A stretch of DNA of 64,000 nucleotides, from the NCBI GenBank assembly GCA_905178155.1, contig CAJINV010000003.1, positions 4,561,863 through 4,625,862 of the forward strand, written 5' to 3'. The DNA comes from Amoebophrya sp. A120 (taxonomy: Eukaryota; Protista; Dinoflagellata). The notes beneath the pieces are model-generated. The model did no database searches and was not told the origin of the DNA. It was given only the letters and a program-made list of their open reading frames with translations. The position numbers and the translations under genes are program-made. Below, piece by piece: positions 7,849 through 61,301 of the stretch (within the stretch, counting starts at the first letter, position 1; each line of letters opens with the position of its first letter).

Positions 7849-10837
7849 ATGCCTGTGCTCTTCTTTACTGTACGAAAAATGCCCCTGGAACAATCTTCCT
7901 ACTATCAACAAACACCCAGGACTCTCTTCGATTTGTTGCTCTTGTCGCGGTCGGTCACAGCAGGAAAGTCTGACCTCAAGGACGACGACGCTTCGCTTGT
8001 TGGTCCGCTGCTGGGTGCGCGAAGCAAGACGGAGAAGAAGCTGGTTGGGGAGTGTCCCGGAGGCGTGGAGCGGTTTGACTTTGCACTGCACGACGCGGCG
8101 ATGAGCACTGGCGACAAGAAGACATCACAAAAGGCGGGCTCTTCGTTGAACCGTTTCAGGGTCTTTCACGTGATCTTGGCAATCGCCCACGTCGTTCGCA
8201 TCCAAGCTTCCAAGGGCGGGAACACGGTGCCCGGAGCTTCGTTGCTCGATCGGTCCAACTATCCTAAGTAAAAACGTACCCACACCAGAGTTAGGATGGG
8301 GATTTTGCAACACAAACCTAGGAGTTTTGTGAGTCACGCATGACAAGTTGCGCTCTGCAGTGTAGTGCAGGTTAGCAAGTGCAGCCGCGTCACAAATCCA
8401 GCTGCTCATCCTGTTCACAGCATCACAAATTCCCAAACCCGATTGGAAATGGCTCTCATGGGGATGCGCATTACAAGTCTTCCTGTCTTTGCAAATCTGC
8501 ATTACAACTCTGGTGTGGGTACGTTTTTACTCAGGATACCAACCTTCGTGATCCGGTGCGGAAATTTGTCAACCTGAAGCTGGCCGAATATCCTGAGTAA
8601 AAACGTACCCACACCAGAGTTGTAATGCAAATCTGCATGCTGAAAATGTTTCTCATGCGGAGCCTCATGAGGAGCATTTTCTAGTCGTGTTTTGCAATTT
8701 GTCATGCTCCAATCAGCATTGTATGCTAGATCTGTGATGCTGCTGAGCTAGCTCAAACAGCACTACACTACGAATCCAAATTTGTCATGCAAAACAGCCA
8801 AAACTTGTGGATTTGTCTAGCCGATTTCCCATCTTGACTGTGTGGGTACGTTTTTACTCAGGATACCGAAAAGATTGCGAACAACCTCTTCCCGCATCTG
8901 GCTGGCACAGTCTGCGACTGCGGGCGCGACGACCCGGTTTTCAAGGAGAAGATGAATAAGTACTTACAACTTCTACTCGTCTTACAAATTCAAAGAAACC
9001 AAAACCGATTGAATACAGTTTTTGATTTTTTCATCACCTAGAGCGAATGCGAAAGTCAATCGATTCTTAAAAGGAAATCCATTTTCTATTCCAGGGTGCA
9101 AGCGGGGCTCCAGGGCATGATTCAGAGAAAACACGTTGAACGCGTCGAGGTGACGGAGCTGGAGAAGGTTTGTTGTCATGAGGGAGAAGAGTGCGACGCG
9201 TCAGGATATGCCTTCGAGTTCGTGTCCGTTTTATACGAGCGGGAGGAGGACCCACCGAGGCACTACTGGACTTGCTTCGCGCCGCCCCGCTTTACAGGTG
9301 CTACCTCTACCGCGACGTCAAGCAGCGTGCCGCCTGCGAAAGTCAGTGCGAAAACACAGAGCGTTGGTTTTGCTCCTGGGAAAGAAACGGCGCGAGGAGA
9401 ACCGCTGGTTGCAGGAGAAGAGAAGAAGTTCGCGAAGATGAAGGTAGCAAATAAAAGTAACGCATCGAAGTCAACAATCCAAGGAGGAGCTACGAGAGGG
9501 GACGGGAAATCGATCGCGAAGACGGCTGGACTTGTTAACGGTCCGACTTTTTCCAAGTCTACAAGCGACGCTGGCCCGGGGTCGAATAAACACGGCATTG
9601 CAGCTGCACCGTCGTCTTCATCATCCGACTTGCTCGGAAATAGTAACCCATTTGCCATTCATCAGCGGAGCGGCGGCAAATCGGTACAAAAGTTTTTTGA
9701 TCTGTACAAAGACACGTCGTGGAGCACTGCGGGAGACGGCGTGAAAGAAGGTTACAGCATCAACGTTTACGAGAAGTCGATCAATCTTTACGACCACTCC
9801 CTCGTGTACGCGGGTGGCGCGGAGAAGGTACATTAATGAAGAGTGACCTTCTGATCATGCTTGATATGAGTATAGTGCAGCTTGCGGATCAGTACACAGT
9901 TGAGCAGCCTGCGTTTGAAGTCTGATCGTGCAGTTGAAGAAATGATAATTAACCACTACATCAAACACTAACAGGGCCGTATTCAGGTGAAGAAGGAAGC
10001 CTTTAGTGACGGCAAAAATCCGGACTTGTTGATCGTGAAGTCCGAGGAAAATCCGGTGAAAAGTAGCACAGTGCCTTGTGGTCTGCGATTCGGCAGTGCG
10101 CCAAACTGCAGTGGAGTGCAAAAGGAACTACTTCGGAGTCCGGAAATACACGTCCGGACGCAGCCGGGCGCCAACCCCGAGACGTTCCTCTTGAGCAAGA
10201 AGTTAACGAAGCGCTACTACGTCAAGCCGACAAGCGCCGCTCCATCGCAAAGTGAAAAAGGAAAAGCAGTCAAGTCTACCGGTAGTGCACTTGCCGGAAG
10301 TGGGACGAAGCAACCATTTCAGGAAGACGAAGTCGTGGACAAGTTCTTTCGGGAGTGGGCCGGAACTCAGTGGATCTCCAAAGCAAGCAAAGCGGAGAAA
10401 CTTGCCACCGGACAGTACTCTGTGCGAGTAATGGCTGGCACAGTGGAGCTCTGCTACGAGAACAAGGTACAAGTCACCAATTGTATGCGCATTGAAGATG
10501 AAGTTGTTTTTTTTTGGTCGTCATTCCTCGCACTTCGTGCACTTCTTTATCGATGAACGCAAAATATTGTTCTCAGGTTGTTGAAGTCGTCGGAAAAGCT
10601 GAATTTTCTGCGGTGGAGGCTGGGCTCATCGAGTTGAGTAAGGACACCTGCAGAATTCGATCTATCACATATGCGAAAGAGGACGCCCTGGACCGCGAGA
10701 GCTGGGAATTTCTGGCTACGATTACGGTGCCACCAACTGCCGCGTCTGCGCCAAGCACGGGCTCGTCGAAGAAGAACTCGGACTGTTTCTACGTCGAGTT
10801 CAGCTACGCGCGGCCGGCTAAAATTTCTAGAAAATAA
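7849..10837 (+). CDS. Hypothetical protein, 6 exons (7849-8259, 8544-8588, 8871-8959, 9095-9827, 9987-10502, 10577-10837)
   Basis: The frame is continuous after removing two TIR elements (plus one TSD each) and three GT-AG introns (8960-9094, 9828-9986, 10503-10576): ...LDRSN|LRDPVRKFVNLKLAE|KIANNLF... The start could instead be ATG 7879. Confidence 0.7.
8260..8538. mobile_element. MITE-like introner, family C (279 bp), 5-bp TSD CCAAC
   Basis: TIRs tatcctaagtaaaaacgtacccacaccagagtt ... aactctggtgtgggtacgtttttactcaggata. CCAAC at 8255-8259 and 8539-8543. Confidence 0.93.
8589..8865. mobile_element. MITE-like introner, family C (277 bp), opposite orientation to the 8260 copy, TSD CCGAA
   Basis: TIRs tatcctgagtaaaaacgtacccacac ... 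tgtgggtacgtttttactcaggata. CCGAA at 8584-8588 and 8866-8870. Confidence 0.93.
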
Positions 10838-11704
10838 GCTTGTTTGTTTGTACTGCGGGTTTTGGGTTCTTGTGCGGGTTTTTGAAGTTTTGGGTTTCAC
10901 AGATTTGCTTGCTGCAGAGGCCTATGCACAAACATGATTACAAATAGCGATAGCATGTTTTTCAATTGAATAATGACAGGTCACATTCGAATTTTCATCA
11001 TTTTTTGGCTTCAAGACAATGAATCATTGAATTGCTTCACCGAGTTTTTTAAATTATGGTTTAGCTTTAGGGTACAGAGACATATGCATAAGTTTCTGAA
11101 TAGTTTCATTTTGCTTTTGGTTTAGGGTTCATGAAAATCCTCACGATTTGAACAGTTTAGACGGGTACGGAACACAGCAGATTCATGAAGATATTGCAAA
11201 ATGCACCTTTAATTCGCAAACGCAACATTTTAGATTTTGTCAACTGCTTGAAATTTTAGCAACAGCCTTCCCGGGCGGAATCAGGTGGATCACCCGATGA
11301 CCCATAGAAGCTTGTTTTTCCAAACTCCTGGAACACGCACAGTATCGAGCTTTCTGTGCGGGACTTTCTGCAGAGTGATGAGGTGTTGCGTTTCCAAACC
11401 AGTTGTGTGCACAGTTCAGAGAAGATGAAGATCCTAGACAAAAGCTTGAGCGTAGCTTGAGTCATTGCAATATTTGAAGTGCTCGTGCTCCTGCTGTGGC
11501 AGTAGGAGGTTTGATACACTTTGTGGCTACACGATTTTTCCATCTCATCAAAAGATAGCTCGGAAGAGAAAATCTCCCTGTGAATACGCACTCCTATTCA
11601 GGTCTCGTAGTAGTGAAAGCAGGATGAGTATGTACTTGAGTTAGGAGCTACATTGGTTGCAGCTCAAATTTTTGTTTTGCGTTTCCCCATTGCATCGCGA
11701 CATA

Positions 11705-14356: not shown

Positions 14357-16410
14357 ATGCCACGGCGCAGCAGCGGTCGGACGAAGCTGGCGAAGCAGCA
14401 ACAGATTGTAGAGCTGTCCACACTCGCGGTCGCCAGTACGTTCTTGTTCCTTTCCTTCTGTTGGAGTCGCCACTCGATTCCGAAGTCGAGTCTGTCTCGC
14501 TACCTGGAGCGACTCATAGCAGAAAGTGAGCAGCTGAGCGATGGCGCCGTCCCCGGAAGAAATGGGGGCACGACGCCTATCAAATGCAAAAGTGTCTGGG
14601 TCTGGAAGAATGCATGTTTGTCATGCTTGTCTGGCATGACCCTTAAATCTGTCATGCACGTTACCCAAGAGCTCGATTTTTCTGTGATGCAGAAACGCAG
14701 TTTGTCATGCAGAATAGGCAACACGTAGAGGCTCAGAAACTTGTCATGCTGAGCCAGCACTTGTGGCCTCATCATGAGACGCCACACAGCATCACAAGTT
14801 TCCAGACCCAGACATTTTTACTTTTGATATCGCCACCACAGTCCTGGTTTTCAGTCATCCGCAACGCCTCGGTTAACCAGTACAAGAAACAGGCCATTCA
14901 TGACTCCTTCCAGAACGCGGTGGGAAGCATCAGCAAGGTGTTGGCCGAGTCGGGGTTGGCAGACTCGGTGGTTGCCCAGCGTCTCCTCTACGCACTGTTC
15001 AAAGTTGCGGAGGGCGACGCGTTGGGCTTCGAGAAAACCGCTGCTGCGGAAGCGGAGGAGATCAAAGAATTGTTTGGGGACATCGCTGTACCAGCCTCGG
15101 CGACCGAATCAGTCTCATTAGCGTCCCCGACCGATAATTCTTTGACGAAACCAGACGCGACCGCCGGGCTTTTTCCTCTCCGCGCACGCTCGTTTCGGGT
15201 ACTTGGCGACGCGGTGCTGGATTCTTTCGTGTTCACCCCGTGCTTCGGTTTGGCAGGATATCTCTTTCCGAAATACTCTGCGCAGGTGGAGGTCCGGCGC
15301 TATTTGCGCCGCTACGAGGACGCTTCGCTGGCGGCGAAGGTACTGTACGCACAGTTGATAACCGCAAAGCGCTTGCCCCAGCTGGCGCCGTCTTCCTCCG
15401 AGGGAAAAAAAGTGAAACCATCACCGGACAAGAAAAAAAAGAAAAAGAAGGACACGACCGGCGTCGCGACTGCGGGTCTTCAGGACCTTGCTGCATCGTC
15501 CGGCGGAGAAAAGACTATGTCTTCCTCAGATGACGCAACGGGCTTCGAAATCATCGAGGTCCAGGACAGCCACCCGTTTGACCGGATTGTCGTACGAGCA
15601 GTATTGGGCCTCGCCGGGGAAGATGCGGAGAACGACATAAGAAGTACGCTGGCACCAGAGCAGCTGCAAGCGCTCGAGCAGTTTACAGAGACAGTGCTAG
15701 AGGCCGGCAAAGAGGTTAGGCGGGGAAGAACGACGTCGCCGGCATCGGGCAGCAAACGCAAAGCCTCAGAAAGCCCGCTCGCCGGTGGGGCTGGAAATGA
15801 CGACGCAGTTGTTTTGTCCGTCGATGCCGCAAGGAAGTGGGGGTCAATTGCAGATTTTTTCCAGCACTGCATTGCACCAACGGCTGTAGCAGACCAGGTT
15901 AGGGAAATTTTGTTGCGGTTTCCGCTAGTGCTTCTCGCGCGGGACCTGGATCAAATGCTTTTCATTCACTGGCTGTGCGATTCTGGCAATACGGAGCTCG
16001 TAAGGTTTGTGCTCAGCGAAGAAATGCTTCAGCCGGTAGTGGAGGTATTGCAGCGGGCTTTTTCATCAAACGACAAGTGCGCACAGAATCCCTACACCGA
16101 TGCGAGGAGCGGAACTGCAGTCGCAGGGGCAGAGCCGGGCGCGGGGGGACTGGGACCGGTGTTTGCGGTTCCTAGCAGCCTTTTTGAGGAAAAAGACGTG
16201 TTAAGTGTTGACGTGCTGCGGAAAATTATGCTGAACCACCAGGACTGGGGCGCGGGTAACACCCCCTTGCATTACGCGTTTGATTGCGAGCAGGACGAAA
16301 TCATAGATCTTCTCTCCTCCGCACCGCATGTAGGCTTGATCGATCAGACAGCGAGAAACATGGACGGTCGCACACTCGAGAAGCTGTTGTCAGAGAGGTC
16401 GGCCGCGTAG
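14357..16410 (+). CDS. Protein with C-terminal ankyrin-like repeats, interrupted by one introner
   Basis: ATG 14357. Removing 14578-14834 (257 nt) joins ...GGTTP|PQSWFSV... in frame. Ankyrin-like NHQDWGAGNTPLHYAF...NMDGRT near the C-terminus. Confidence 0.75.
14578..14829. mobile_element. MITE-like introner, family A1 (252 bp), TSD ACGCC/TCGCC
   Basis: TIRs tatcaaatgcaaaagtgtctgggtctggaa ... ttccagacccagacatttttacttttgata. Highly similar over its full length to 60587-60838. Confidence 0.93.
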
Positions 16411-16844: not shown

Positions 16845-19800
16845 ATGAATCAATTTCCTTTTGCTAGAAGCCGCGATCCCTACCACCAGGCGGGAGCGCA
16901 GATGCGGAAAAACTCCGGCAACACCGCTGCAGGAAAGCCTCGGCCCAGGCCGTCCGCAAAGCAGAAGGCCCCGGATGATACCGCAGAGGCCGCAACCGCA
17001 GGCACTTCTCCCGCCCTGAAGAAGCGAAGAAAGCACGCCGACCCGGGCGCGTCTTCGGGTGCAAACGCGGATTCGAAGAAAGAGGAAGCCACTAACAAAA
17101 AGAAGAAAAATCCTGCGGCAGAGAAAGTGAAGGCGCAAATCACGAGGCAGCAGCTCTCGAAGAAGGAAAAACTCCTGTGGGAGAAGCATCAGGCGCAAAT
17201 TGCTTTCGGCCCGACCGCCATGGAGCAAGTTTTCAGTGGCGAGAAGACCGTAACGGATTACGGTCTGCGCAAGCAGGACCTGATGCAGGACCCGGAAACG
17301 GGGCGGATCGTCTCGAAGAAGCAGTACCAGGCCCGCATCAAGCGATGGCACACGCCGGCAAATGCCGACGGAAGCGTGAATCGCAATTTTCACTGGAGTA
17401 AGGCGTTTGCGAAAGCGCGAGCGGAGCACGCGGGGGGCAAGAAGGCGACGCCGGATGGTACAGAGCAGAAACTCGCCGCGGAAGTAGACGAGGGATTTGC
17501 GGCTGCACAACAGGAAAACATGGCGCAGCTGCGAAGCGGTGTCGAGCCCTCGCGAGGTGGAAAAAAATCCCCAATGAAAGCCTCTGCATCTTCTTCACCG
17601 AACAGTGTGGAGCAGGGCAGGATAAAATCGGTGAACGTGTTTGCGTTGACGAAGCCCGAGCGGACTGGGCTGTTTGACCGCACGCGGGAGCTGTACACGA
17701 ACTCGGTTGCAGAAAGCGAGGCCGATCACCGGATGCAGGAGCTGGCGAAACGCTGGACCAGCAATTTGCTGAGGGAAGACGACAGCGGGCTGGACGTTTT
17801 GTGGTCTCACGGCGCCACGCTGGCGGGAGAGCGGGAGCAAGTTGCCAATCAAGACCAAGATGCGACGGCGGGACAAAGCGTACACGGCGGGAAAAATGAT
17901 CCGGTGCACGAGGAAAAGGTGGATTCGGAAAGCAACGCTTCGACTTCCTTGCTTGTACAGTTTTTGCGCCACTGCTTTTCGCGTGACGACGGTTCGATTG
18001 CGCCGGAGCAGCAAACCGACGTAGATGAGCGAAGCGGCCTTCATCCACCGGGGCCCCGAAAAGACAATGGGTCAGAGGGGAGCAGCTTTGCAGAAAATGC
18101 GAAGAACGACGCGATCAGCCCGCAGAAGTACTGTGCAGTTTTGCAACAAGAAACTACTCCTGTTATGCCCCCCGCGCCGGAAACCGCTGGAGCATCACCA
18201 AGAGCAGACGCAGCTACAGCCGCATCTCCAGCCGATTGCAGTTCCGGCCTTGGTATCGAGCCCGTCGCTGCTGGTGAGCCAAACACCGCGGATTTTGACA
18301 CTCCCGCAATCGCATTTGCAAATGAAGTTGGGTCACCTGCTGCACAAAATTCCCTAGATGAAGGCGATAGAAGAAGCAACCCGCCCGAGGAAAGGAAAAG
18401 CACAGGCTCAGTGTCAGGTTTACGTGCATTGGGCGAGTGTTCAGAAGACACGGCGAGAACAGCGTGGCACAAGTACTTTGCTCCGGAACTAGTGAAAAAC
18501 GACGATGGTGAAGCTGCGCTGACGCCCGTGTCGGTGAAGAGCCTTTGGGACGAGATGACGCAGCACTTCGTGCGTTCAACATTGGTTTATCAAATGTAAA
18601 AATGTCTGGGTCTGGAAACTTGTGATGCTGGGTAGCGTATCATGAGGAGGCTACAAGTGCTGGCTCAGCATGACAAGCTTCTGAGCTTCTAGGTGTTGTC
18701 TATTCTGCATGACAAACTGCGTTTTCGCATGACAGAAAAATGCGGCTCTTGGGTAATGTGCATGACAAATTTAAGAGTCATGTGCATTCTTCCAGACCCA
18801 GACATTTTTGCACTTGATATGGTTCGGGAATTCGCAAAGAAAGAGGATCTTGCGCCGCTGAAGCAGGTGGTGCCGCGGATGCAATGCGCTACGTCTTCTG
18901 TACGACCGACGACTGCAGCGTCTTCGGAGCGCCGGATGACCCCGGAGGAGGAAGACGTGTTTCTGCGGGAGTGTCGTGAGGCGTTGAAAGTGTGTGGGAA
19001 TCCAGCACTGGCAGCGAAATATTCCGGAACTTTGCCGCTGCTGGCGCAGAATGGTGAAGCCGTCCCACGAGGCGACGCACCGGAACAGCCACAGCTGCCT
19101 GAACCTGCGAGATCGCAGCAGTTCGCGAAAAAAGAAAATAAGAAGGAGAAAAAACCTATGCCGGAAGCGGTGAAAGAGAAGCTGCGCAAGCACAAGCAAG
19201 AACAGCGGGAAAAGAAACTGCAGGGGGAAGAGCCAGTGCGAATAAATAAGAAGGCAAAGGTAGACAAGAATGCTGAGCAGGATAGCGGAGACTACTACTC
19301 CTGGTACGACTACAATTACGATGATGCCCTCGACGGTTACAATTGGATGGAGCTTGACTACGACAACTATGGGTCATACGCGGACAAAGACGGATGGCCA
19401 GCATTCCCGGAGTATAACTCGTCCGCTTCTGCGTCGGTGTCACACTCGAAGTCGGCATCACGAAAGAAAAACGACAAGAAAAGCAAGAAGCTGCCACGCC
19501 GGGCCAAGGACAAAGCGAAGACGGAGATGAAGCATAGCCAGAACTTGAAGATGAAAGAAAGCGGCCGCAAGAAGGGGCCTTTGCCAAGAGAGATGAAGGA
19601 TTTTGAGAGTCTGCAACAAAAAGAAGACGGTGCGACTAAAGACGACGCGGACCATGGCCCAAAGCGAAAACCGCCGGAGCTGCGGCAGAACGTGGCATCG
19701 TACGGAGGGCCGGAGTGCTTTGTGTTCGAGGATGATGACATCAGTTCGGGCTCTTGGTCCGAAATTACTGACGGCGAAATGGAGCGGCTAGACGCGTACC

Positions 19801-27612: not shown

Positions 27613-28868
27613 ATGGCGACCACCATTTCGGAAAGCCCGAGCCGGCGAGAAGAAAGTAAGCGACTTCCACAGCTGTTGCGGGATGGATCCCTGGCCGATT
27701 GCGTGACCGCGGGTAATGCGGTCAGCGGCATCTGTGCCATCCTCGGGTGCATGTATGCGAGTAAGGAACATCTCCGGGACGTGCTCACACGGAAAAACGA
27801 CTCGGTTTTCTACACGGTACCGGAGCGGGACCTGGACCCGGCCTGGGCGCTGCGGGTCGCCTTCTGGTTTCTCCCCCTCGGGCTCGTGTGCGACATCATG
27901 GACGGCTTCGTAGCCCGGCTCCGGAAAGCCAGCAGCCCCTTCGGTGCGGTATCGTAAGGAAAAATCCCCCCTCCCCATATCGGAAACGGAAGACGCGCGA
28001 ATTTGTAATGCTGTATTTGAGTACACAAATCCACTTGTATTGCTAGAAGGCCAAGAGACGAAGCTGCGGCCTAAATTGCAGGCAATCTGTCATGCTGTTT
28101 CCCACGTCCAGTTGCCTCCTGTCATCCTGGAGCTGCAAGGCTTTCCCTCGCTAGACAGCACTACAGTCCGCATCTTTTGCCTTCTAGCATCACAAAGCTG
28201 ATTTGTGACCACAAATCTGCATCACAGATTTCCGTTTTGATATGGGGAGGGGGCATTTTTCATTGTAATATGCGGACTTGGATTCCCTCGCGGACCTGGT
28301 CACCTTCGGAGTTGCTCCCAGTGTGTTCGGGTTTGTCTTGGGCCTTGACGGGGGGTGGGACGCTTGCTGTCTGCTGTTTTTCTTGCTGTGCGGCGTCGCG
28401 CGGCTAGCGAGGTACAACGTCACCGCCTCGCTGCTCAGCGATACGAAGACTGGACAGGTCTCCTTTTTCCAGGGTCTGCCCATTCCCGCCTCGTTGTGGC
28501 TGTGCTTGTTTCTCTACATCGATTTCGAACTTTCACAAAAGGATACCAGCACCAACTTGGCCTCATCCGCTGCCGCTGGCCAAGCAGAAGAAAGGATCAG
28601 TTTCTTCGGGGGCGCCGTCCAGTACTACTCTGAGGGTGCGGCCCGGAGTGCCGAGCATTTCGGGCTAAGATTATTGCGCCCGGTAGTGCGAGTTTTCGGT
28701 TCACGACTGCACTTATTCTCTCTGTGCTACCTGGCCACCGGGTCGGCACTCATTTCCACGTTTCCTGTGCCGAAGCCAGACCTCAATTGTCAGAGGCGAA
28801 AAGACACGCTACCGCAACGAAGCAAGAGTGCACAGAAAAGACTGGAAAAACACATTGGAAAGCTGTAG
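27613..28868 (+). CDS. CDP-diacylglycerol--serine O-phosphatidyltransferase (PssA/CHO1 type)
   Basis: The CDP-alcohol phosphotransferase motif DIMDGFVARLRKASSPFGA|DLDSLADLVTFG is reconstituted on removing 27950-28275. Also ADCVTAGN, ARLARYNV and FFQGLPIP. Confidence 0.9.
27950..28270. mobile_element. MITE-like introner, family D (321 bp), TSD TGCGG
   Basis: Imperfect TIRs tatcgtaaggaaaaatcccccctccccatatcggaaacggaa ... ttccgttttgatatggggagggggcatttttcattgtaata. TGCGG at 27945-27949 and 28271-28275. Confidence 0.92.
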
Positions 28869-31335: not shown

Positions 31336-33838
31336 ACTCAGCTAGTTTTTCGCGGCTCGCAGAAAACATGCGCGTAGTTCTTGTGCGCTAGTAGTGCTGA
31401 ATCAATGTACCGTTATATACATCTAACGAGCACCGTTTTTTGTTTCTATATGGCCCGAGAATTCGAGGGAGACTGCCGCACGAAGGCAGTGCCCATAATT
31501 TGTGAGAGGGAAGATTTGTTTGAAGCAACACTCACCGGTTGGTGCGGATACTGTCGTGTTCGTGGTTGTTTTCTGAGCCGATTTTTGTGTAGGTATCTAA
31601 GATGCATATGGCTCATGAGATATCCACAATCTTTCCGTTTTCTGTCGAGTTTTCATTGTCTTTTTGTTCAAAACGGAAACGACTGTCAGTGCCTCGTGTA
31701 GTAGAACCATTTAGCTACCCACAAGCCGCTCCCAATAAATTTGCTCCAGAAAAATCGTGACAGTTGTAGAAGATTTAAGCGTGTGCTGCCTAGGATTTGG
31801 CATTCGCCGCAAGCAGTCCTCTCGTGGATCGTCGCTACACAGCTTTTTAGTGTCTGTGTGTAAGTATGTGTAAGTATATTTTGAATGTGGTCTTACCGTT
31901 TTTAGTTTCCTGATCTATTAGCGCAGCTACCTCCACCAGCTGCCGCTTCGTCGTGGTGTAGAAAACTCCTGGAACAGAACGTGCGATTTCTGATGTATTA
32001 ATTGTGGCTGCTCCTGCTGTATTACCAAGCTACTACTTATTTACATTTTTTGTTTTGCAAATCGACATAGAAAAAATATGGTTGTCCCCGCGCTTCTGGG
32101 ACTCAGCGGGTTGGGTTACTTACAGTGGAAGGCCGGAAAAGATATCCTTGCTGAAAACGTCTTCAGATTTGCGATGAGCAGAATGTGTGCTCTGATGCGG
32201 ATTCGATTGAGAGCCGCTTTCACATAATGTTTGGGGATAATGCTTGCTCAGTATGTTGAGAAAATAGCTTCGTGATGAGGCCGTACGGCTAGCCTCGATG
32301 ACATTGTAGGCAAAATTTTGCTGTGTGCATACCGCAGTATTTCAGCATCCGGGTCTTGATGCATGTCAGTCTGCAGAAGTCACATCGCTGCCTAGAGGCT
32401 GGGGACGTCTTCAAGCAGGATAAAGGACCTGAATGCGCTAACCGATGGACAATCGCACAGTCCTTTCACATTTTGGGCCGGACTGTCGCTTGGAGGCCTG
32501 CTTGGAGTGTGGGTAAGAATTTTTGCCGTGTTTGAAGCGCATTCCGACGATTTCCTGCAGTGTGAGACACGACGTAAGTACTCAGTGTCCGATCAGTGCG
32601 CATACATCTTCAAATTTAATGTCGCATCCTAATCTACTTGATCGATTCCGTTCCCATTTTGTAAACAGGTGTACCGTGGCTCTCTGGTCTTCGAAGTAGA
32701 AGTAGATTCGACTAGATGATGCGTGCTTGTGAATCATGCAGAATATTAGCGCGTTTTAAGACAACAACGCACTGCAGGTGGGAACAAACTATGGACCAGC
32801 CATTGTACGCGGCTACCAAGCATGTGAAACATTTCTCTCTTGGGTGGTTCCTTTCGGGTTTTCCGGAGACGACAGTAATCGCAACAACGCGGACGGCGCC
32901 CCTCCGAAGAAATAATCAGCATGTTCTGGATTACCAGCACAAATCAGAGCGTTACACATAGCATAATCGTTCTTGGTGACCTACTGATGAAGTATGGTGC
33001 CCACCGCATCCACACCTGTCGTCGAAATTTTTTTCTCGAGAATATTTGGTCGTCTCTGCAAGCGAATCATGCACAGCGTGGTCAAAGTGAGCGCTGATAC
33101 AGCATACCATCGACTGCGAGAGTGCACCAGTTGCGCGGAGCTAAAATGCCGTTTCAATGTCTGTTCTGAAGTCTCCTTCAAATAAGAAGAAACTTGGGTA
33201 CTGGCGTTACAAGCGCGCACCTGAGCGAAAAGACATCTGTTGTACAGAATGACAAGGCATCAAGGGTTGCAATTATGCGACTGCCGCGTCCTGGTCCAGT
33301 GCGTTGGGGAATCAAGGAGCACAGAAGTGTAGACAGTTCGTATACAACGCACAACATTCATCGTTATTTTCCTGATAGAGATTTGTTGTTGTTCCGATCG
33401 CTGATTCCATGAATTTCGTTTCAGATTTCGTTTGCGGGTCGTCCATCATGCATTTCGCAACCAATGTCGAAAACTTCCAGGCAACGGGACGAGCACTCTA
33501 CTAACGACGCCGCTCCTTCGGATGCATACTTTCGTGATGTCACTCTTCCTCTGTCGTATTCTTCGGGTTCGTATCGTTCAGGATGCTCGTTTTGGTTTTT
33601 CTCCCTAAGGTAAACATCGATACATTGTTGGCTGTCTTCGTAGACCCTCTAGGTTAGATGGAAAAAACACGTGCTCTGCTGGTTGTAGGCCGGCCTAGAG
33701 AGCATTACCTTTTTTTGTTGACGTCGTGCTACAGTTAGTGCATGTATTGAGAATTAGAATTTATAACCAAGAGACTACATCGCACGCTTTGATTTTGCAG
33801 GAGTCGTGAGGTTGTTTTTCCTGATTCTGGTAGCCAGG

Positions 33839-36800
33839 ATGCCAAGGTGCCTCAAAGTGGTCGCGTTGTTCTGCTGTGTTGCACAGGCCATCCAAGAACG
33901 GAAGGTGCAGCGGCAGCTCGAGGCGGAGCAAGATGCGAACTCGAGCTACCGCGGTTCTCTACCTCCGCCGCAGTTTCAAGGCCAAAACCAACCGACGTCT
34001 CCTGCGGGTGTGTCACCGTCTGTGCCTCCGGCGGCGTCCAATTACCAGGGTTCTCTGTCTCCGCCGCAATTTCAAGGCCAACAGACGTCTGCGAATGCGC
34101 CACCGTCTGTGCCTCCTGCAGCGCACTACGGGAGTGCCGCGCCGGCGCCAACTGGAACGCCACCTACTGGGGCTTCTCATGGTCATGGCGCTGCACCCTG
34201 GATGCCGATGGCGCAGAATGCCATGCGTTCTTTCGGCGACATGATGCAGAATTTTGTTCCTCCGCGTCAGCAGGAGCAACACCAGCCGCCGCATCATGCG
34301 ACTCAGCAGCAGCACCAGTCGCACTATGCGACCGAGCAGCAGCACAAGCCGCACTATGCGACCGAGCAGCAGCACCAGCCGCACTCTGCGCCCAGCCACT
34401 CCACCGCTGCTGCTCCTGCCGCGCTTCCGGAGACAGCCCCGGCGCACTACACTGGCGCTGCAGCACCTGGTTTCGATTCGCCATCTCAGCCGGTCAAGCG
34501 CGAAGAAGTTTCGGCCCCCAATGACCCGTGGGGTGTCAGCGATGAGTCCACCTCGCAATTTCACAACGCATACGTGGTGCAACAGCCTGAGCCGCAACAG
34601 CATCCGCCGGTCGACGTGTCCTCCACGTCAACCGCACATAATGAACCCCCGCAGCACCACGCTCTACACCATGCGCCAGAAGACCTACAACAGCATCTGC
34701 AGCAACATGGGCCACAACTCCAGCAGCACGCACACCAGCTACAGCAGCTGCACGGGCCACAATTCCAGCAACACGCACAGCAGTGGCATCAACAGGCCGG
34801 GGGCCACGGACTCCCGGTCTGGAACTTCCCTGGTCAGGAGCAGGAGGTGCATCAAGAGCCGTACTATGGTCCGTCCGAAGAGCAGTTGCCGACACCCACG
34901 GAACGTCCACAGCAAGGACAACAGGATGTGCAACAGCTGCAGATGGAACATGCGCCACCAGTGCAACACCACGAGTTTGCCTACACACACCAGCCCATGC
35001 AACCTGCGCCACAAGTACAACGTGTTCATCATGCACACCAGCCGGTGCAATATGCGCCACAGCAAGTGCAGCAACATGCTCCTGCGCATCAGCTGGTGCA
35101 CGATACGCCACCGACGCACCAGCACGCACAGGAAGGACAGGTGCAGGAGCATATGCCACAAGCACCCCCCGCAGCCTCGTTCGGTGATCAGTTGGGCTCC
35201 TTCATGCGCAACTTGCATAGCAGTCTCCCGCCGCAGCAGCAGGCGCAGTTTCAGCCGTTCGTGCAAGAACTCCAGCAAAAACAGTTTTTCGGGCCCACGG
35301 GGCGCGAAGGCGGAAAGTTTCTGAGCGAGAAGGCCATACCTGCAATGGGGGAGGCAGTTGCGCAGACTGCGGCAACTTTTCTCGGCTCCGATCCTTTGCG
35401 AATTTCGGCCCTGGACGAAATGAACATCGTGTATCAGTCACACCAGGAGCTTTTTGCGAACGCAACGAATCTGATCAGCGCCGCCGAGCAGACCGAGGGA
35501 GGACTCGATCGCATTCGCGAGAATGTGATGCAGCGGGTGCGGGAAGCTTTTGACGAAGTGATTGAGAAGGTGAAGTCGCAGTTCGCCGGATTGCTAAACA
35601 CGTTCGTCGAAAGCGACCGAAGCCTTACCTTCCGGACGGAGCTTGCCACAACGATGTTCCAGTACCCCAGTGATGACGCTTTCATCGATGACATTCTGAT
35701 GGACACGACACCGCTGGAAGTGATGCAGCAAGCGAACATTACTTCGGCCGAAGAGTATGCGAGCGCGCGTCAGACGGCATCCAACACGTTCCAGGATGCG
35801 ATGCAGAGCATGTCTGAGGGACCCGATGGTGGCAGCCACGAGAATGTCGCGCACACAGCTGTTACGGAAAAGCTTGCGCCCGAAGGCGATGACGTTATCG
35901 TGCAGAAGCTCGGCTTCAAGAAGGACGGAAACCAGGTGGAAGCCTTTCTCAACGACGTCACAGCGGCACAGAAAACGTACATGAATAGTGAGTGCGTTCT
36001 GTATTATTTTTTAACGCTCTCCAATAACGGCCTGGCGCTGGTTAACATTTTTTTCTTGCATTACGAAAGTACAAGGTTCTACGGCGATGAGGTTTCGTTC
36101 CGCCTTTGGAGAAACGTGACGGCTGCATAGAAGCCCAGATGATCAGGTTGAGACAGATGAAATAGTACATTTCTACTTATTATTTGTTAACATGATCTGC
36201 TCAGCTGCCTGTGACTTAAGGTTAAGACGTATGTTCTCCAGGTTTATGACCGACTTCAAGCAGGCGGGTGAGTACTTCGGAGGCTCCGAGATGGCCACCA
36301 GTGACTACATGTACGACGCGAAGCATCGAATTCTTCAGCGGTTCCAGGGTGTGGTTCAGTCAGCGGACAAAGTATTTGTGGTTTTTTTCCTGACACCCTA
36401 CGGAGAATAGTATTATTTCCAGTGGGGATGCATGTACTAGTCTTTCTCTTTTGCATGATCATTTCTGTCGCCATCCCATCCTTTTTCTTGGCTTCGCATA
36501 CAGATTAAGTACTCTCGATTTTTTTTTTCAACCCCACAGGAAACGCTGGCAAAGATCATGGTGATGCCGAGCGTTCTGCACCACCCCCACGTCTATGCAC
36601 TGCAAACACAGGCATTTGGTTTTGTCATTTGATTATGTCGCTCGCAAAAAAGAAAATGAAAAGATACAGAGGATTTTCTGCTGGTGGTTTTTCCCAAACG
36701 CTATCTATCATTCCAGTTCTGATAGATTGCGAATCCATATTCTCCTGTGTGATTCATGCTATTTTCTCATGTATGTGACGGACGCGTTGCCATTCGCCTC

Positions 36801-38418
36801 CGTGGCTCCTGGACCAAGATAGATAAATAAGTATCCCCTTCCGTATTCTGTGCAGGATGAGAAGTTTCTTATTTCGTTTTTTTTTTCCGACTCAGAATCT
36901 GAGTCGGAAAAAAAAAACGAATCAGATGACATGTTTGCAGCGTATACCGTGCCCGGCTACACTGATTCCGCGTACAGTGTGCACAACATGTCGGGAAGTA
37001 TGATGGAAGCTGCCCACCGCATGATCCGAGACGAATACCACGTCGTGGCTATCCTCCTGAGTAGATCATCCTCTACCATGACGCAATTCATATGCGTTTT
37101 ACCGCGAAGGCTGTGCATGTGCATGGATACATTCGCTCCGCATGATTAGGAGCATTTCATGTAGTTGTACCACTTTCCTAGCCTGTCGCGTACAGCCAAG
37201 AAACTTCTAAATTTAGCCATGAAAAAATTCGTTTGGTAAGTCTACCTTTTACTTTTGTGAACATGGTAAGTCTACCTTTTACTCAGGATAGTGACTGTGA
37301 ATTTTCGAGCAAAGTACGGCATCACCCGGGAGGTACAAAACATGCTTGCTCAGTTGCCTGTATGTAAGGGTATAGCAAGGATGCGGCCTCCTGAGCCGAG
37401 ATAAAAATGCCATGAATCATATGAATGCTACAAAATATAATCAACGTCAGGGGCCGAGCAAGGGGTACCGGCAGGACCCGATCAGTCAGCAGTTCCTGAA
37501 GTATGCCACGCCTCCGCAAGCCCAAGCCGATTCGGGCGCCGCGCCCAGCGGAGAGGAAGGGGCGTCGGTCGGCGAAGTGAACAAGACCGAGGAGGTGGGG
37601 AAGGACGACAGCGGTTGCTGTGGCTACGGGACGACGCCGGAGGATGAAAGCAAGAAAACCGAGGAGGTCGTGGGGGAGAACGCCGCCGAGAGCAATGCGA
37701 ACGACGGTGAAAGCAAGGCTTTCGTCCAGGTGAACGCAGCCGCGACGATGAGCGCGGACTTCCTGGCGAGCGAGAAGTCACTGGGTGGTCAAGATGAACA
37801 GCACCGGGACGAGCCGTTCCCGTTTGCCAGCGAACCAGTTGCTGGGACAGAAGACGCGGCTTCGTTTCTTCAGTTCAAGTCCAACGCTATGACAACCTCC
37901 CGTGGGAATTTTTCCAAAAAGATGAAGAGATTTGATTTCTTCCGCTAGTAAGTACATCAGAAACGTAACTTCTTTTTGGTCGCAGAGCCCTTGAAGATGC
38001 AAAGGCGACGTTTGCAAACGCTACCAAATCTCTACCTACTAGAATGATTCCCACTTGGCGGTAGTATACCAGCGTACGCAGAATCGGCCTACGGTATGGA
38101 GACTGACAGTTCATCCTATGTTCAACTCGCATTCATTCTCGGGGAGGAATACTTAAGAATGTAGCGCGATGTGATGTTTGATTTCAGAAACTAATATAGC
38201 TGTCCCCCAAAAAATGAAAGATCGTATTCACTTGAAATGGAAAAACAGCTTCTCCAACGAACGACGCACCGATTCCGTGGGGCTTCGTGTTCGCGATTCT
38301 GTGCGGGCTGATGTTCACCGCCGGATTCGTGCGGGTTGGCTACAACTACTATCTGGCACAGTACAAGGCGACGCTGAAACCGGAAGTTGACTACTACGTC
38401 AAGGACGTGGGGATCTGA
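33839..38418 (+). CDS. Signal-peptide-bearing Gln/His/Pro-rich multi-exon protein with probable C-terminal TM exon (type I surface protein)
   Basis: MPRCLKVVALFCCVAQA signal, internal peptide repeats, several GT-AG introns and a degenerate introner. An unlisted short frame at 38249-38418 encodes IPWGFVFAILCGLMFTAGFVRVGYNYY...DVGI*. Linkage of the last exons is not fully resolved. Confidence 0.6.
37050..37290. mobile_element. Degenerate family-C-like introner (241 bp), TSD GTGGC/GTGAC
   Basis: Left end tatcctcctgagta, right end ttttactcaggata. Removing 37050-37295 gives the open frame EYHVVA|VNFRAKYGITRE, which joins ORF 37412 via a GT-AG intron ending at 37450. Confidence 0.75.
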
Positions 38419-46649: not shown

Positions 46650-49600
46650 ATGTCGGGCCTCATCCCGCGCGATTACCAAATCGAGGCCGCGAACTCGGCG
46701 ATGAATGAAAATATCATCGTAAATTTGCCAACCGGGTCGGGGAAAACGCTCATTGCCGCTCTAGTACATGAGCAAATGAAGTCACGGATGACCCTCGTGG
46801 CGTGCGCGTCTGTCGCGGTTATAGAACAGCATACCCAGTTTTTTCAATCCCGAGGGATTCGAAACGTGATCATTGACACCGCAGCTGGCCTGAAAGCACG
46901 CATCTTCGATTATGGGGGCGTAGGTATCTATTGCAAATGCTAATTCCTGTTGATTTCATCTCGATAATTACTGAGTAGACAAACTGGCGGCCTCGCTAAT
47001 TTTGCAATTGGTTGGTAGGCACACAGACGCTTACGAAGATAGTTTCTTTGTTTAGATGGAGGAAGAAACCAGGATCGACTTGTGAGCAACGGTCAAGATG
47101 AATTATTTCGCCAAAAAAATCAATTCAGGTGATGAGAACGACGAAGAGGAAGACCCGGACGTGAACGCACGGATGCTCGAGGAACGAAGAGAAAACATTC
47201 GGCGAAAGGTTGCTGGGGTGCAGCTGGTGGTCTTTGATGAATGCCACCACGCAATCGGGCACCACCCCTACGTGAAATTCTGCGAGCTCCTGTTTCAGTA
47301 TTGTTTGGATAAAGATTTGTGAAGTTGGAATTTGTTGGCGATGTGGACGTAGAGCTAGAGGTTGCGCGTTTTTGATGAAAAATCAAAACCCATGCCAGTG
47401 GGCAGCTTTGTAGTTTTCTCCTGGCGCTGTCTGAGTTTGATGCTAGATCCATCTCGATAACGTAAACATGACATCAAATAACGCAGGTACAAGGAACAGG
47501 AGTCATTTCGGGTGCTTGGGCTGACCGCGAGCTTCATTCACGGGCAGTTCGAGCAGATCTCGAAGAAGCGGAAGCGGTTGGAGGACAACCTCCGGGCGCG
47601 GCTGTGGACCCCCACGAACTTTTTGGTGAAGAACCCGGACAAGCACTTTTACAAGGTGGAGTACAGCGCGCCCAAAAACCTGGTGTTGAGTAAGCGCGAC
47701 ATCGAGAACCGCAGTTTCGAGATGATGCGCCCGATCCTGAAATCCCTTCCCTACGGCATGGCCTCCATCGTGAGCAAGGAGGTTTCCAAGTCGGCCTACC
47801 TCTGCTACTACATCCTGGGCGACGCGGGCTGGTCCTTTTTTCTCCGCGACGGGCTGGTCCCGTACCTGGAGGCCAAATTGCGGCAGAAGGCCGAGTACGT
47901 GGTGCGGGATGCGGTGCAGCAGCACGAACTGAACAGACGCTACGCCCTGGAACACGACGACGACAAGTACAACAGCGAGCAGAAGGATTTTCCCGTGGAT
48001 CAGGGAGGTGGAGGGAGCCTCGGGACGAACGGTGGTCCACCGCCCAACAAGAAACAGGCTCGCGGCCCCTTCGAAGACTACAGCGACACCGCCTCGTTGT
48101 ACTCCAGCGCCCCGTCTCTACCGACAACTTCCGACCTGGAGTCACAGCGTGCCGAGTTCTTCGCACCGCTCCAGCGGTACCTACAGCAAGCCATCCCGAT
48201 TATTCCCCAAGTCAGCCCCAAAGTTGAAAGTTTGCTCGAGATCTTGCTGTCCTGCACGTCCTCCAGAACGGTAAACACCTACGTCACCGACCCTGTCTTT
48301 GGCGGGCCGGCATACGCGGTACAAATGTTTTCTTGCTGTAGCGTTCTGTCAGACACGAGTGTTGACACAGTTAGGTCGCGCACCAGCTGTCCTGCTTTCT
48401 GTAACCCGTACTCATCACGTGACCAAAAGAAACTATGGGACTCGACTGACTACTAGAGTTTGGTCACGTTGCCTTGTCCGTCTCAAAAAGGCATGCTCAA
48501 AAGGAAAGATATATATCTGTAGCACCGACTGAATTTCTGTTTTGCAAAATTTACGTGACGACAAATACAGCAACAAGTGGAGGAAATCGACACTTCTCTT
48601 GTTTTCGTGGAGCGTGCGGTACTCTGTATTCCGCTGGCGAAGATAATCGAGATGCGCACACGCCGCGTTTGCCGACCAGTGATGGGTGTGCAGAGCATGT
48701 CCGCGGAAGTGCGGAACTCGACGCTGCAGGCCTTCAAAGAGGGCAAAGTCCGAGTCATCGTCGCTACCAGCAGTCTCGAGGAAGGTAAAGAAGCATAGGA
48801 CTTGAGAAATTACCACTGCATTCACATTGTTGTATGCTATGATAGCAGCTGCGATCATCTCCTGCTTTCAGTGTATGACAGTATAGTTGGAAGACAAAAC
48901 TCTTTTTTCTACAAACGCTCCGCTCCCTCTCCCTGGTAGTTCACTTATGATTTGCTATTTTGTCCATACAGGTATCGATGTTGCGGACTGCAAGGTGGTG
49001 GTACGATTCGATTACTTCTCTAGTGTCCGGTCGCACATCCAGGGCTCGGGCCGCGCGCGGCACCCAGACGCGAAGATTTTTTACTTCGAGCAGGAACCCG
49101 AAGTGGAGGAGTACAAGGCGAGCCTGATGACACTGGCGGCAGCCAACCGCGACCTGGAGATTCCGGACCTTGATGCGCAGCAGCGACGGCAGATTCCGGA
49201 GCTGCAGCGCGGGACGGGAAACAACGGCAAGGAAGGCAAAGAAGGCGACGAGGAAAACAACCAGGAAGGCGATCCGAAGAGCCGGACCGACAGCAAGCGA
49301 AACCCCGGGCGCAAGTGCCAGGACCCACCGCACCTCCGCGTCCGCGAGTACCCAACGCTGACACTGTGCGGCGTGGGCCACTGCTTCGACAAGGAAGAGA
49401 TATCAAATGCAAAAATGTCTGGGTCTGGAAGAGTGGAAGATTTGTCATGCAGGTTTTCCATGATCCATGAGGTCTGTAATGCATGGTCTAGCATGACAGA
49501 TTTTAAGAGGGCTTCCTGATGCCTGTTCCGCATGAGAAATTCCCTCTCGCCGTGGGAAAATCTGGAGTCTTCTCGCTGGTCATGCATTACAGATTTTTCT

Positions 49601-51288
49601 CGAATCCGAAGACAGCATGACAAGTTGCAATCTCTCAGACCCAGACACTTTTGCATTTGATAAGCGACCACGTGGGACCACGTTTCCAACAAATCCCAAC
49701 GGGTGGCCGTCTGTATCCCCCAGAAAAAGACCGACAGGTCATATTTGTAATGCAAAAATAAATAGACAAAAAAATCTGTATTGCATGCCCTAAACAGGAT
49801 GTTATGGCCTCGCCCATGACAGATTTTCCTGTGTATTTATTTTTGCATTACAAATATGACCTGTCGGTCTTTTTCTGTGGGATAGTCTGCACCAAGTGCA
49901 AGCGCGCCACCGTGGTGATCAAGTCGCGGGTGCTGGGCCAGGGGAGGAAGAAGAAGGAGCGGTACTACTGCTTTGGGGGCCGCGAGAATGACTGGGTCTG
50001 CAAGTGGGCCACGCCGGAGGAGCTGGAGAAGGCGAAGACCATGACCATGGAAGACCTCCTGGAACAGGGGCACGAGGTCGGCACCCACGCGGCGAAGGCG
50101 ATGCAGGTGGCCAAACTGGACGCGGAAGCGCGCCGGGCCGAGGCCGAGAAGCGCAAGAGGGAGGCGGAGAACGGGGAGGCGCAGGAGTTCGCGACGCCGC
50201 CCGACCAGTCTCCGCGCACCGAGGACGACGGTGGAAATAACGTGGACGCCGCGGACGCGAGAGTGAAGGACCATTTATTGCAGGCTTCGGCGGAGGACGG
50301 CGAGGGTGCTGCGCAGGTAGCGGAAAAGGGCGATGTGACGTCTTCCAAAAAGACCGACGCAGAGGGGACGAATAACAACGGTAGTACGAAAAGACAGAAT
50401 GTGTCTCCCGCCAAACCCGCACGGGGGAGCGCCTCGGTGTCGACGAACGCGTCAGGGCAGCGCGTTTACAACTTGCTGGAGGGACCGCTCGAAGGTCCGA
50501 TCGTCAGTTTGCGGAAAGAAAAGGAAGAGAGTACCGAGATGGAGAAAATGCTTGCTACCGGCGGGAACCGACCCATGAGCTACCAGCCCGTGCAGCAGAG
50601 CTACCTGGGCGGCACCGTTGCAGGCGGGTATAGTAATCCCACCGGTCCGGGGGGCCCGGCATCCGGTGTCTACCCCGCGAGCTACGGTGCCAGTCCAAAC
50701 CGCAGCGGTGGTCCCGGTTCGTATGGAAACTACCCGGCGACCGCACCGCCGAGGCCGGCTTCTCTCGGGGGAGTCGGAGGCGACTCGTCCGCGCCGCAGT
50801 ATAGTGCAGTTCCGAAAGGTGGGCGAGCCCCCAGTACTACAGGTAGTACTACCGGTGGTCCGAAAGGAGCGGCCGCCGCGACGCCGACCCGCGAACCCCC
50901 TGGTCTCGCGGCCGAGCAACCGCAGAGCAGCACATCGAAGGAAGGCGCTGTCGTAGGGAGTGAGGCGGGAGAACTACAACCATCAGGCACGACGGCCAAC
51001 AAGGCTCCTTTGCCGGTCATCGACAAGCCAAACCCGTCGCTTCCCCCCATCATGCCCCCGGTCCTCGCACACCTCAAGCGCACAAGCTCCAGTGCGCCGG
51101 AAGAAGCTGTCGCCGCTCCGGTTCCACCGCCGCTACCCGCGGGAGGCCCGCCTCCGCCGCCCGTTGCCCGACCACCCCCACCCCCGCCACCGGGGCTTTC
51201 TCCCGACGACGACCCCGCCGACGACGACTTGCGAGCCCTCGAAGAGTTCGGTCACGAGGAAAACAAAAAGTTTGAGCAAGTGCAGTAA
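46650..51288 (+). CDS. Stand-alone Dicer/RIG-I-type DExD/H RNA helicase with Cys-motif region and Pro-rich tail
   Basis: PRDYQ, LPTGSGKT, DECHHA, LGLTAS, VFVER, IVATSSLEE|GIDVADCKVVVRFD and HIQGSGRAR. GT-AG introns at 46924-47128, 47298-47486, 48271-48570 and 48785-48971, plus two introners. Confidence 0.88.
49401..49662. mobile_element. MITE-like introner, family A2 (262 bp), opposite orientation to the 41328 copy, TSD AGAGA/AGCGA
   Basis: TIRs tatcaaatgcaaaaatgtctgggtctg ... cagacccagacacttttgcatttgata. Contains an in-frame TGA (49517-49519). Removing 49401-49667 gives FDKEE|TTWDHVS. Confidence 0.93.
49714..49884. mobile_element. Foldback-like introner, family B (171 bp, ~66-bp TIRs), TSD GTCTG
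   Basis: tatcccccagaaaaagaccgacaggtcatatttgtaatgcaaaaataaat... is mirrored at the right end with ~4 mismatches. GTCTG at 49709-49713 and 49885-49889. Removal gives VAVC|TKCKR. Confidence 0.95.
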
Positions 51289-59716: not shown

Positions 59717-61301
59717 ATGTTGGAGCTGGAGGAGTTCTCGTTTCGGGACCTGGCCTCCGTGTTGTTTCCCGACTGGCTGAGCTCCACGGACGAGGTGATT
59801 GGTATCATCGCCGAGGCGCAGAGGACCGGGCACCTGGCAACGGAGCGCGCCGACGTGAAGGAGGTCGCGTTCACGATGAACAAAGTGAGTGCCACCGGTT
59901 CGTCCTACACTACGCGCTACCTCTGCGGGGCGGATTTACCCGTCTTGGCGGAGTTGGAGAGCGGCGTTTGCTACGCTTCCGCGCGGGGCGAGCTCGGACT
60001 GGTTGTCAACTACTCGATGAGTCGGACGAAGTGGTTTCCCAGCCTCGGGCTCCCGGAATACGAAGTGTGGTTCTACGATGCCGTTTTGATCCTGGTCGGG
60101 CTTCTCTGCTCCCTGTGCCTTTGGTTCAACGTCAAGGCGTTTTTGTCGCTGTTCGCGGCCGCCCGCGGGGCCAAGCCGGTCCAGTTGGTCGTCGAAGACG
60201 AGGTGACTTTGGTGGACGCGAAGCAGTATCAGCAGGTCGCTCCGGTGCTCGATGTCACGGCCACGACCACGCTGCTTGATGATGAGGTCGACCTGGAGGA
60301 CTCGGCGGTGGAAGGTACTCAATATTTATGGACTCGTTTGATAGGACATCACTGCTACACTTTGCAGAATATTAAGCAGTAGCTTATGGACACGACATCG
60401 ATGTTGAAATGATGTATGATGTGCTCTTTGTACTGTAGCTCCTTGTTGGACTTGTAAAAAATCTACATGATCTACAATCGCAGATAAATCGGTTTCGGTG
60501 GAGCCCGTTTCGGTGGTTGAGAAGGAAGAAGAGAAGGTACCAACGCCCGTGACCGAGGCTTCCGGAAGCGAGGACCGCCTCCAGGATAGCAAATGCAAAA
60601 ATGTCTGGGTCTGGAAGAATTCATGATTGTCATGCTTGTCTGGCATGACTCTTAAATCTGTCATGCACGTTACCCAAGAGCTCCGTTTTTCTGTGATGCA
60701 GAAGCGCAGTTTGCCATGCAGAATAGGCAACACCTAGGAGCTCAGAAACTTGTCATGCTGAGCCAGCATTTGTAGCCTCGTCATGAGACGCCACCCAGCA
60801 TCACAAGTTTCCAGACCCAGACATTTTTACAGTTGATACAGGATGCTGTCCCGCAAGAGGCCGCGGCGGTTCCGGAGAGAACGACGGCCATCCCGGAAGG
60901 TTAGAAAGATGTTTTGATTTAATATCTGTGAAGTTGTTGAGCGCCGGGTGCGCGTATGGCGGATTTTATGTCTGCGTTCCTCTGTCTGTTTCTAGCCGTG
61001 CACCTTTCGAAAGCAGAGGCAAGGTAGTTGGTTCCATACGCTAGTGGCTGTACAAGTACAGATGGTCGAAAATAATAATCAATGCAACCAAGGTTCTTAC
61101 GAAGAGACTACGCCCGCACCGGCTGTGGACGACGGTGGCGCTAGTTCTTCGTCGGACATGATCTCCCCCGCTATGACCCAGACGACGGCGGGTGCCTCCA
61201 AAATCTCCAAGGGAACCCGTACCTTGAAGCGTCGCTTGTCTTCGTGCTGCGGGGTTTCGAAGGTGCAGGAGGAAGCCACGTACACCCTGGACTCCGCTTA
61301 A
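59717..61301 (+). CDS. Hypothetical single-pass membrane protein, multi-exon, with one introner
   Basis: ATG 59717. TM-like AVLILVGLLCSLCLWFNV. GT-AG intron from ~60314. EDRLQ|DAVPQE is joined on removing 60587-60843. Last exon ends in TAA at 61301. Confidence 0.65.
60587..60838. mobile_element. MITE-like introner, family A1 (252 bp), TSD CAGGA
   Basis: TIRs tagcaaatgcaaaaatgtctgggtctggaa ... ttccagacccagacatttttacagttgata. CAGGA at 60582-60586 and 60839-60843. Same length and orientation as the 14578 copy. Confidence 0.93.

Follow-up and report, generated by a model that had tools for sequence, protein, structure and literature searches.

Introner elements with TAT...ATA ends in a stretch of the Amoebophrya sp. 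A120 genome: anatomy, removal and a bound on the position of the cut

Elements and host genes of the window

The window analysed here is a stretch of 64,000 nucleotides of Amoebophrya sp. A120 DNA (GenBank assembly GCA_905178155.1, contig CAJINV010000003.1, positions 4,561,863 to 4,625,862), and all positions given below are window coordinates. It carries a series of short elements with terminal inverted repeats (TIRs), ten of which had been described, from the sequence alone, as introns derived from MITEs (miniature inverted-repeat transposable elements), flanked by 5-bp target-site duplications (TSDs) and removed precisely without GT-AG borders. We consider it very probable that they are the published introner elements (IEs) of this strain, which have TAT...ATA ends and a 5-bp duplication and lie in coding exons; a putative integrase-type DDE transposase likely inserted them, and they are likely removed at the RNA level. 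As such they are already known, having been in print since 2021 for this genome (Farhat et al. 2021, PMC7789003). Our small addition is that all five junctions able to discriminate between the duplicates retain the upstream one, which bounds where the cut falls.

All ten elements were found where the original prediction had placed them, with lengths of 171-321 bp. Their ends are inverted, TAT[C/G]...ATA (variants TAGC and AATA), and are abutted by a 5-bp direct repeat (DR); this repeat, which had been reported for every element, is perfect in seven, with one mismatch at 14578, 37050 and 49401 (elements are named here by their first position). The catalogue of ten had overlooked three further elements, one at 32143-32422 and two decayed TAT..ATA introns at 36594-36946 and 37888-38068. 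A scan for TAT..ATA pairs (arm match of at least 15/20, duplication of at least 4/5) gave 11 pairs in the window and 0 in each of 50 shuffles; these were nine of the ten elements noted earlier, 32143, and an unplaced pair at 56830-57268. The last, TAGT-ended with arms of 15/20, a flank repeat of 4/5 and no family match, is possibly a decayed element or a chance pairing. For 9 of 11 window elements 8-103 related copies were found, and none for 32143 and 37050.

Each of the ten elements has stops in all three plus-strand frames, in line with the original claim; once the element and 5 nt are removed, a plus-strand frame is open at every one of them, although at 60587 it is short (38 codons upstream, 20 downstream). 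Sliding the border within the 5 bp yields no GT..AG pair at any of 11 window elements, and the best pair at 60587 is GA..AG, both in agreement with the original prediction.

Among annotated Amoebophrya sp. A120 proteins, P0001, P0070 and P0071 are 100% identical to window genes and P0073 matches exon by exon. The corresponding host genes are:

14357..16410, + strand: host gene of P0070, 598 amino acids, protein match
27613..28868, + strand: CDP-alcohol phosphatidyltransferase P0001, 309 amino acids, 100% protein match
33839..38415, + strand: host gene of P0073, 1027 amino acids; four GT-AG introns and three TAT..ATA introns
46650..51288, + strand: DEAD/ResIII helicase P0071, 1120 amino acids; four GT-AG introns and two introners

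The elements are given below with the evidence at each, where X3 is a record set only guessed to be RNA, P0072 is the A25 orthologue of P0071, and z describes the predicted hairpin fold:

8260..8538: introner element, 279 bp; duplication CCAAC, perfect; frame open with 8589 also removed; 27 related copies; frame evidence only
8589..8865: introner element, 277 bp; duplication CCGAA, perfect; separated from 8260 by a 50-nt exon; 28 related copies; frame evidence only
14578..14829: introner element, 252 bp; duplication ACGCC/TCGCC, of which the upstream copy is retained; P0070 and an RNA-type contig
18588..18819: introner element, 232 bp; duplication TGGTT; inside an extended open reading frame (ORF) that has a DVNP domain; X3 record 12; hairpin z -8.99
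27950..28270: introner element, 321 bp; duplication TGCGG; within the catalytic motif of the CDP-alcohol phosphatidyltransferase; P0001; hairpin z -8.31
32143..32422: eleventh element, 280 bp; duplication AAAGA/AAGGA; short ORF open after removal
36594..36946: decayed TAT..ATA intron, 353 bp; flanks ACGTC/CCGTG; 358 nt (element plus 5) absent from P0073
37050..37290: introner element, 241 bp; duplication GTGGC/GTGAC, of which the upstream copy is retained as far as position 4; P0073
37888..38068: decayed TAT..ATA intron, 181 bp; flanks AACGC/CCAGC; 186 nt (element plus 5) absent from P0073
41328..41588: introner element, 261 bp; duplication ACGAA; interrupts an SF3B2-like gene (DUF382 and PSP); 96 related copies; frame evidence only
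49401..49662: introner element, 262 bp; duplication AGAGA/AGCGA, of which the upstream copy is retained as far as position 3; P0071 and P0072
49714..49884: introner element, 171 bp; duplication GTCTG; near-palindromic, with copies of 99% identity elsewhere; P0071 and P0072
60587..60838: introner element, 252 bp; duplication CAGGA; 93% identity to 14578; frame evidence only, short

Removal of the element together with five nucleotides

Comparison with reads and contigs covered positions 8400-28399. In X3 record 12 (3133 nt), 16785-18582 is followed by 18820-20154 without a gap in the record's own coordinates; the 237 nt skipped equal the 232-bp element 18588 plus 5. A second X3 contig restarts at 14831, as is expected if the first base of the upstream duplicate at 14578 is kept. 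The annotated proteins call for the same length: 257 nt are removed at 14578 in P0070, 267 nt at 49401 and 176 nt at 49714 in P0071, and 246 nt at 37050 in P0073, while at 27950 the translation obtained after removal of the element plus 5 is identical to P0001.

According to the genome paper, the annotated proteins were built by a transcript-plus-BLAT pipeline on the same genome (PMC7789003). Two checks are independent of that pipeline. At 27950 only +5, out of removals from +2 to +8, restores the spacing of what we take to be the CDP-alcohol phosphotransferase motif, and the restored spacing is that of 64 of 66 matched homologue motifs (69 hits). At 49401 and 49714, P0072 aligns without a gap. 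The earlier suggestion that nearby GT-AG sites might be used instead could be examined at 49714, where an in-frame GT..AG pair lies one base outside each end and would add a codon; P0071 and the A25 orthologue both use the element plus 5. Support beyond the open frame thus exists at 6 of the 10 elements: an RNA-type contig shows one junction, annotated proteins give five more, and the catalytic motif and the A25 orthologue agree. Removal of the element plus 2 (N-T...A-N ends), suggested by dinucleotide tallies in a table of Gozashti et al., was rejected at all 6 checked elements, and these tallies probably reflect aligner preference.

A larger sample of copies came from metagenome_contigs, where the main 30-nt TIR matched 128 loci (587 kb), none of which contains unique window sequence; it had 0 matches in viral_contigs. 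When the window and these loci are taken together, 467 TIR pairs result, of which 279 show a 5-bp duplication without mismatch and 58 show a single mismatch in it; a perfect 6-bp duplication occurs in none of the 467, and no peak is seen at other lengths from 2 to 9. Of 674 ends, all obtained with a scan that demanded TA[TG], 671 begin with TAT, and 578-637 have A at positions 11-14. A coding frame is opened by removing the element plus 2, 5 or 8 nt in 187, 186 and 181, respectively, of the 282 copies with enough flank, as compared with 80-89 for other lengths. A codon model oriented 222 copies, calling one of eight window elements on the wrong strand. In these 222 the duplication has no base preference and, as far as the imperfect strand calls allow, conceals no splice signal; within the slide, 5 of them could yield GT-AG and 19 could yield G[TCA]-AG. 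Both orientations occur in all five families tested (10/8, 5/5, 6/7, 8/17 and 2/2). Where the two duplicates differ, 36 of 66 mismatches are synonymous and none creates a stop, against a synonymous share of about 0.30 expected under neutrality, which implies that the bases of the duplication are coding and that the hosts are under selection and are not pseudogenes. Together with the X3 junction, the annotated proteins and the A25 orthologue, these frame statistics support the original claim of MITE-derived introns removed precisely without GT-AG.

Several features of the host genes may be mentioned here. P0071 combines DEAD/ResIII and helicase-C domains and, among longer proteins, its only relative is from A25; its start resembles helicases that we take to be of the Dicer/RIG-I/FANCM type. 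In the 16818-19850 region, residues 135-176 of the first ORF match a DVNP-family domain (E 1.5e-08), which points to a dinoflagellate; the domain lies inside a frame of ~930 codons after intron removal and not in a small stand-alone protein. The SF3B2-like U2 snRNP (small nuclear ribonucleoprotein) gene at 40753-41600, with DUF382 and PSP, is itself interrupted by the 41328 introner. The homologues listed for P0001 are mostly metagenomic, and many carry the name CDP-diacylglycerol-serine O-phosphatidyltransferase; one AT5.2 protein is also among them. Tandem repeats of coding type occupy 34276-35127 and 42390-42524 (Q/H-rich units; 15-bp units).

Published relatives and the putative transposase

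For A120, the genome paper describes an inverted-repeat (IR) motif of TAT, 7 nt and at least three A, DRs of 3-5 nt and 29,850 repeated introns; its non-canonical introns are RNA-supported, their resemblance to MITEs is already drawn there, and one example, described in a supplement legend, has direct repeats of 5 bp (PMC7789003). The window elements share the strain, the TAT + 7 nt + AAA ends, the border direct repeats, a size of ~240-260 nt, the hairpin and the non-canonical ends. Every tested feature of the A120 IEs was found (genic location, IR motif, a DR within 3-5 nt that is here 5 bp, non-GT-AG removal and repeated hairpin families), and the window elements are therefore members. The original prediction, which had likened them to IR/DR-flanked introners of Amoebophrya, was right about the kinship and understated it, since they belong to that published system in that very strain. 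What differs from the published account is that the window and loci resolve a strict 5-bp duplication at the TIR (279/467), where 3-5 nt was reported, and that five junctions bound the cut register (PMC7789003).

The original prediction is not right in treating the combination of a 5-bp TSD with such ends as unnoticed, though the mobilising transposase may, as it suggested, be undescribed. In the catalogue of Gozashti et al. 2025 (PMC12130899), which has 58 A120 families, the majority are classed as TIR DNA without an assigned superfamily, and family 38 (808 bp, 5 copies) is listed as 'Ginger; 5-bp TSD, TA/TA Termini', with homology to Copia/Gypsy-like integrases, while the text of the same paper describes family 38 as lacking Ginger's termini and TSD. 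Compared by description and not by sequence, the window elements are shorter than family 38 and non-coding. TA..TA termini, TIRs and the absence of target-sequence preference are likewise shared with IS3EU and GingerRoot (PMC10045372, PMC6839031, PMC12730594), whose TSD is, however, usually 6 bp (6-8 in GingerRoot) instead of the 5 bp seen here, where no perfect 6-bp duplication was found among the 467 pairs. Ginger1 and Ginger2 end in TG..CA, whereas our elements end in TA..TA, and the GT-AG borders of canonical U2 introns (GT-AG or GC/GA-AG) are absent within the slide at the window elements. The TIR, a TSD of fixed length, lack of coding capacity, many copies and either orientation are all those of MITEs. 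On present tests the elements thus work like MITEs and are members of neither IS3EU nor Ginger. Euglenid nonconventional introns (PMC11282704) and the non-canonical introns of Fritillaria (PMC13326754) are also MITE-like, with TIR and TSD, non-GT-AG borders and exact removal; they belong to other lineages and have other motifs and boundary preferences, whereas the A120 duplication has no preferred base.

The anatomy makes it highly probable that insertion proceeds by cut and paste, the target being cut with a stagger of 5 nt and chosen without sequence preference. As to the enzyme, the TA..TA ends point to IS3EU/GingerRoot-like transposases, though those make 6-bp duplications, and its placement in the IS3EU/GingerRoot/Ginger integrase group is a tentative one to which we would give a little less than an even chance. 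Among 791 ORFs of at least 130 amino acids in the loci, 219 scored as coding, and Pfam searches of the 150 longer ones among these gave no transposase or integrase; this is a weak negative, the search having covered ~0.5% of a 115-Mb genome (size from PMC12005148), and PMC7789003 likewise reports no transposase in A120. No autonomous copy with the same TIR was found among the long TIR pairs in the 587 kb, and the ORFs scanned in L032, L040, L049 and L065 contain no transposase family.

Of the long candidates with a perfect duplication, L032 476-2934 is likely a chance pairing whose last 250 bp are a whole element, and those in L007, L012, L013, L040, L046 and L049 proved to be ordinary elements with unique inserts. 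These inserts of ~150-1300 bp (introners at L007:6314-6770, L012:571-1051, L013:3862-4492, L040:765-1461, L046:855-1387 and L049:9991-11566) represent captured or nested DNA; the one in L040 has a C/H-rich frame without a Pfam match. At L061:406-3424 there is a near-perfect inverted duplication with arms of ~970 bp containing whole introners, either a fold-back or an assembly artefact. Within introner interiors (loci and window), C-to-T differences among related copies are 2.7 times commoner at CpG (0.118 vs 0.044), an excess that suggests CpG methylation of the elements.

Position of the cut and mechanism of removal

The imperfect duplications, counted in 83 of 378 elements, can show which copy is kept. 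Taking k as the number of upstream-duplicate bases that lie inside the intron, the annotated proteins retain the upstream duplicate at all five diagnostic junctions, with bounds of k ≤4 (14578), ≤2 (49401), ≤1 (37050, where only k=0 and 1 fit), ≤4 (36594) and ≤2 (37888). A single register of k = 0 or 1 is compatible with all five. The eight GT-AG introns of P0071 and P0073 all start with GTA (four with GTAT) and all end with CAG; with k = 1 the introners would start with N-TAT, like positions 2-4 of these host donors.

We propose that in the RNA the arms fold into a strong predicted stem that draws the ends together, and that removal of the element with one duplicate restores the original protein; that this acts on RNA and not on DNA appears very likely. 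Somewhat better than even are the prospects of a fixed register, in which the 5' cut would fall at the TIR or one base before it, N-TAT taking the place of the GTA donor; downstream, cutting would occur 4-5 nt beyond the base of the hairpin, and AG would not be needed. The chemistry would be done, with a similar slight preference on our part, by a modified U2-type spliceosome guided by the predicted terminal hairpin. This is favoured over a separate nuclease and ligase because U1 small nuclear RNA (snRNA) was reportedly not detected in A120 and because the DR/IR layout is also present in 15% of its canonical introns (PMC7789003).

A number of points weigh against this account. Direct sight of a junction in an RNA-type record is limited to a single case, and that X3 is RNA is a guess; in the raw RNA sets X9 and X10 the host genes are uncovered and only TIR fragments of other loci appear. 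The annotated proteins are not independent of the genome on which their pipeline ran; 8260, 8589, 41328 and 60587 rest on open frames; and the frame test in the copy sample cannot separate +2, +5 and +8. The arms of 37050 match, without gaps, at 10 of 20 bases, inside the chance range for that test. The diagnostic junctions are few (five), and the joint bound of k ≤1 depends on 37050. The Fig. 3 legend of PMC7789003 describes the sites as variable or unknown. Finally, the synonymous share of 36/66 slightly exceeds the 0.47 ceiling for a fixed register (p 0.126, 0.043, 0.177 and 0.049 with four filters), which may be a hint of sliding cuts.

One alternative accepts the same elements and has the RNA cut and rejoined by a spliceosome-independent endonuclease and ligase recognizing the hairpin, as proposed for euglenid nonconventional introns. 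The lack of a conserved boundary base in the duplication, the occurrence of both orientations, the very stable predicted hairpins and the undetected U1 snRNA (PMC7789003) would all suit such enzymes, and there is the euglenid precedent, in which the excised introns are circular (PMC11282704). Against them, TAT..ATA ends and removal with +5 persist in the two decayed introns even though their arms are weak, N-TAT resembles the host GTA donor, and the layout shared with 15% of canonical introns suggests one continuum (PMC7789003). We regard this alternative as possible and clearly less probable than the modified spliceosome.

Another possibility is that the cut slides inside the duplication, so that either copy reaches the mRNA and both are constrained by coding. 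The synonymous excess without stops speaks for this, lying over the fixed-register ceiling at p < 0.05 in two of four filters, but it is not significant in the other two, the upstream copy was kept at 5/5 annotated diagnostic junctions, and codon scores have no trend with position: a codon-score test of which duplicate is exonic gave no signal at any position. A sliding cut therefore seems rather doubtful to us, a shade more so than the endonuclease.

Excision at the DNA level before transcription, by ciliate-like elimination or precise excision by a transposase, would also leave the element and one duplicate missing, and no transcript-level mechanism is known. In contig set X1, possibly the source of the assembly, 25-56 nt run unbroken from unique flank into the TIRs at a single-copy depth of ~26, and the elements are thus present in DNA; as a reservation on our own account, the X1 evidence consists of the joints listed, and contigs drop rare variants, so rare excision is possible. 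X3, by contrast, holds the joined form, its depth being 0.88 in one gene-poor bin vs 137 in the preceding bin, and the introns are RNA-validated (PMC7789003), which leaves DNA excision very improbable. Least probable of all are ordinary MITEs breaking pseudogenes, or GT-AG introns spliced at nearby sites: of the 222 oriented copies, 21 (49714 included) do have a G on either side of the element that provides an in-frame GT..AG, but GT-AG within the slide is possible in only 5 of 222. This explanation is contradicted, at 6 of 10 sites, by the exact junction in the RNA-type record, the annotated proteins that are intact, the conservation of the motif, the alignment with the orthologue and the excess of synonymous mismatches.

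One may go further and imagine a ruler, a conjecture to which we would give perhaps one chance in three: the 5' cut would be made one base before the hairpin (N-TAT standing for +2 to +4 of a GTA donor, with no U1), while at the 3' side the intron would end four bases beyond it and without AG, so that any insertion with a 5-bp TSD by a TA..TA integrase-type transposase of unnamed lineage would make a perfect intron in either orientation, tens of thousands of times in A120. Our literature searches found no paper fixing the cut register or naming the transposase; information on the register and on the length of the TSD may be contained in figures S19-S25 of PMC7789003 and in files 13-14 of PMC12130899.

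Few documented cases of splicing are as strange as the A120 system, and what is new here is a small, testable lead on the placement of the cut, for which imperfect duplications offer a cheap genome-wide readout from existing RNA reads. Should the register prove fixed and sequence-free, a splicing rule measured by structure would be defined, and it would explain how a transposon can saturate exons without cost to the proteins they encode.

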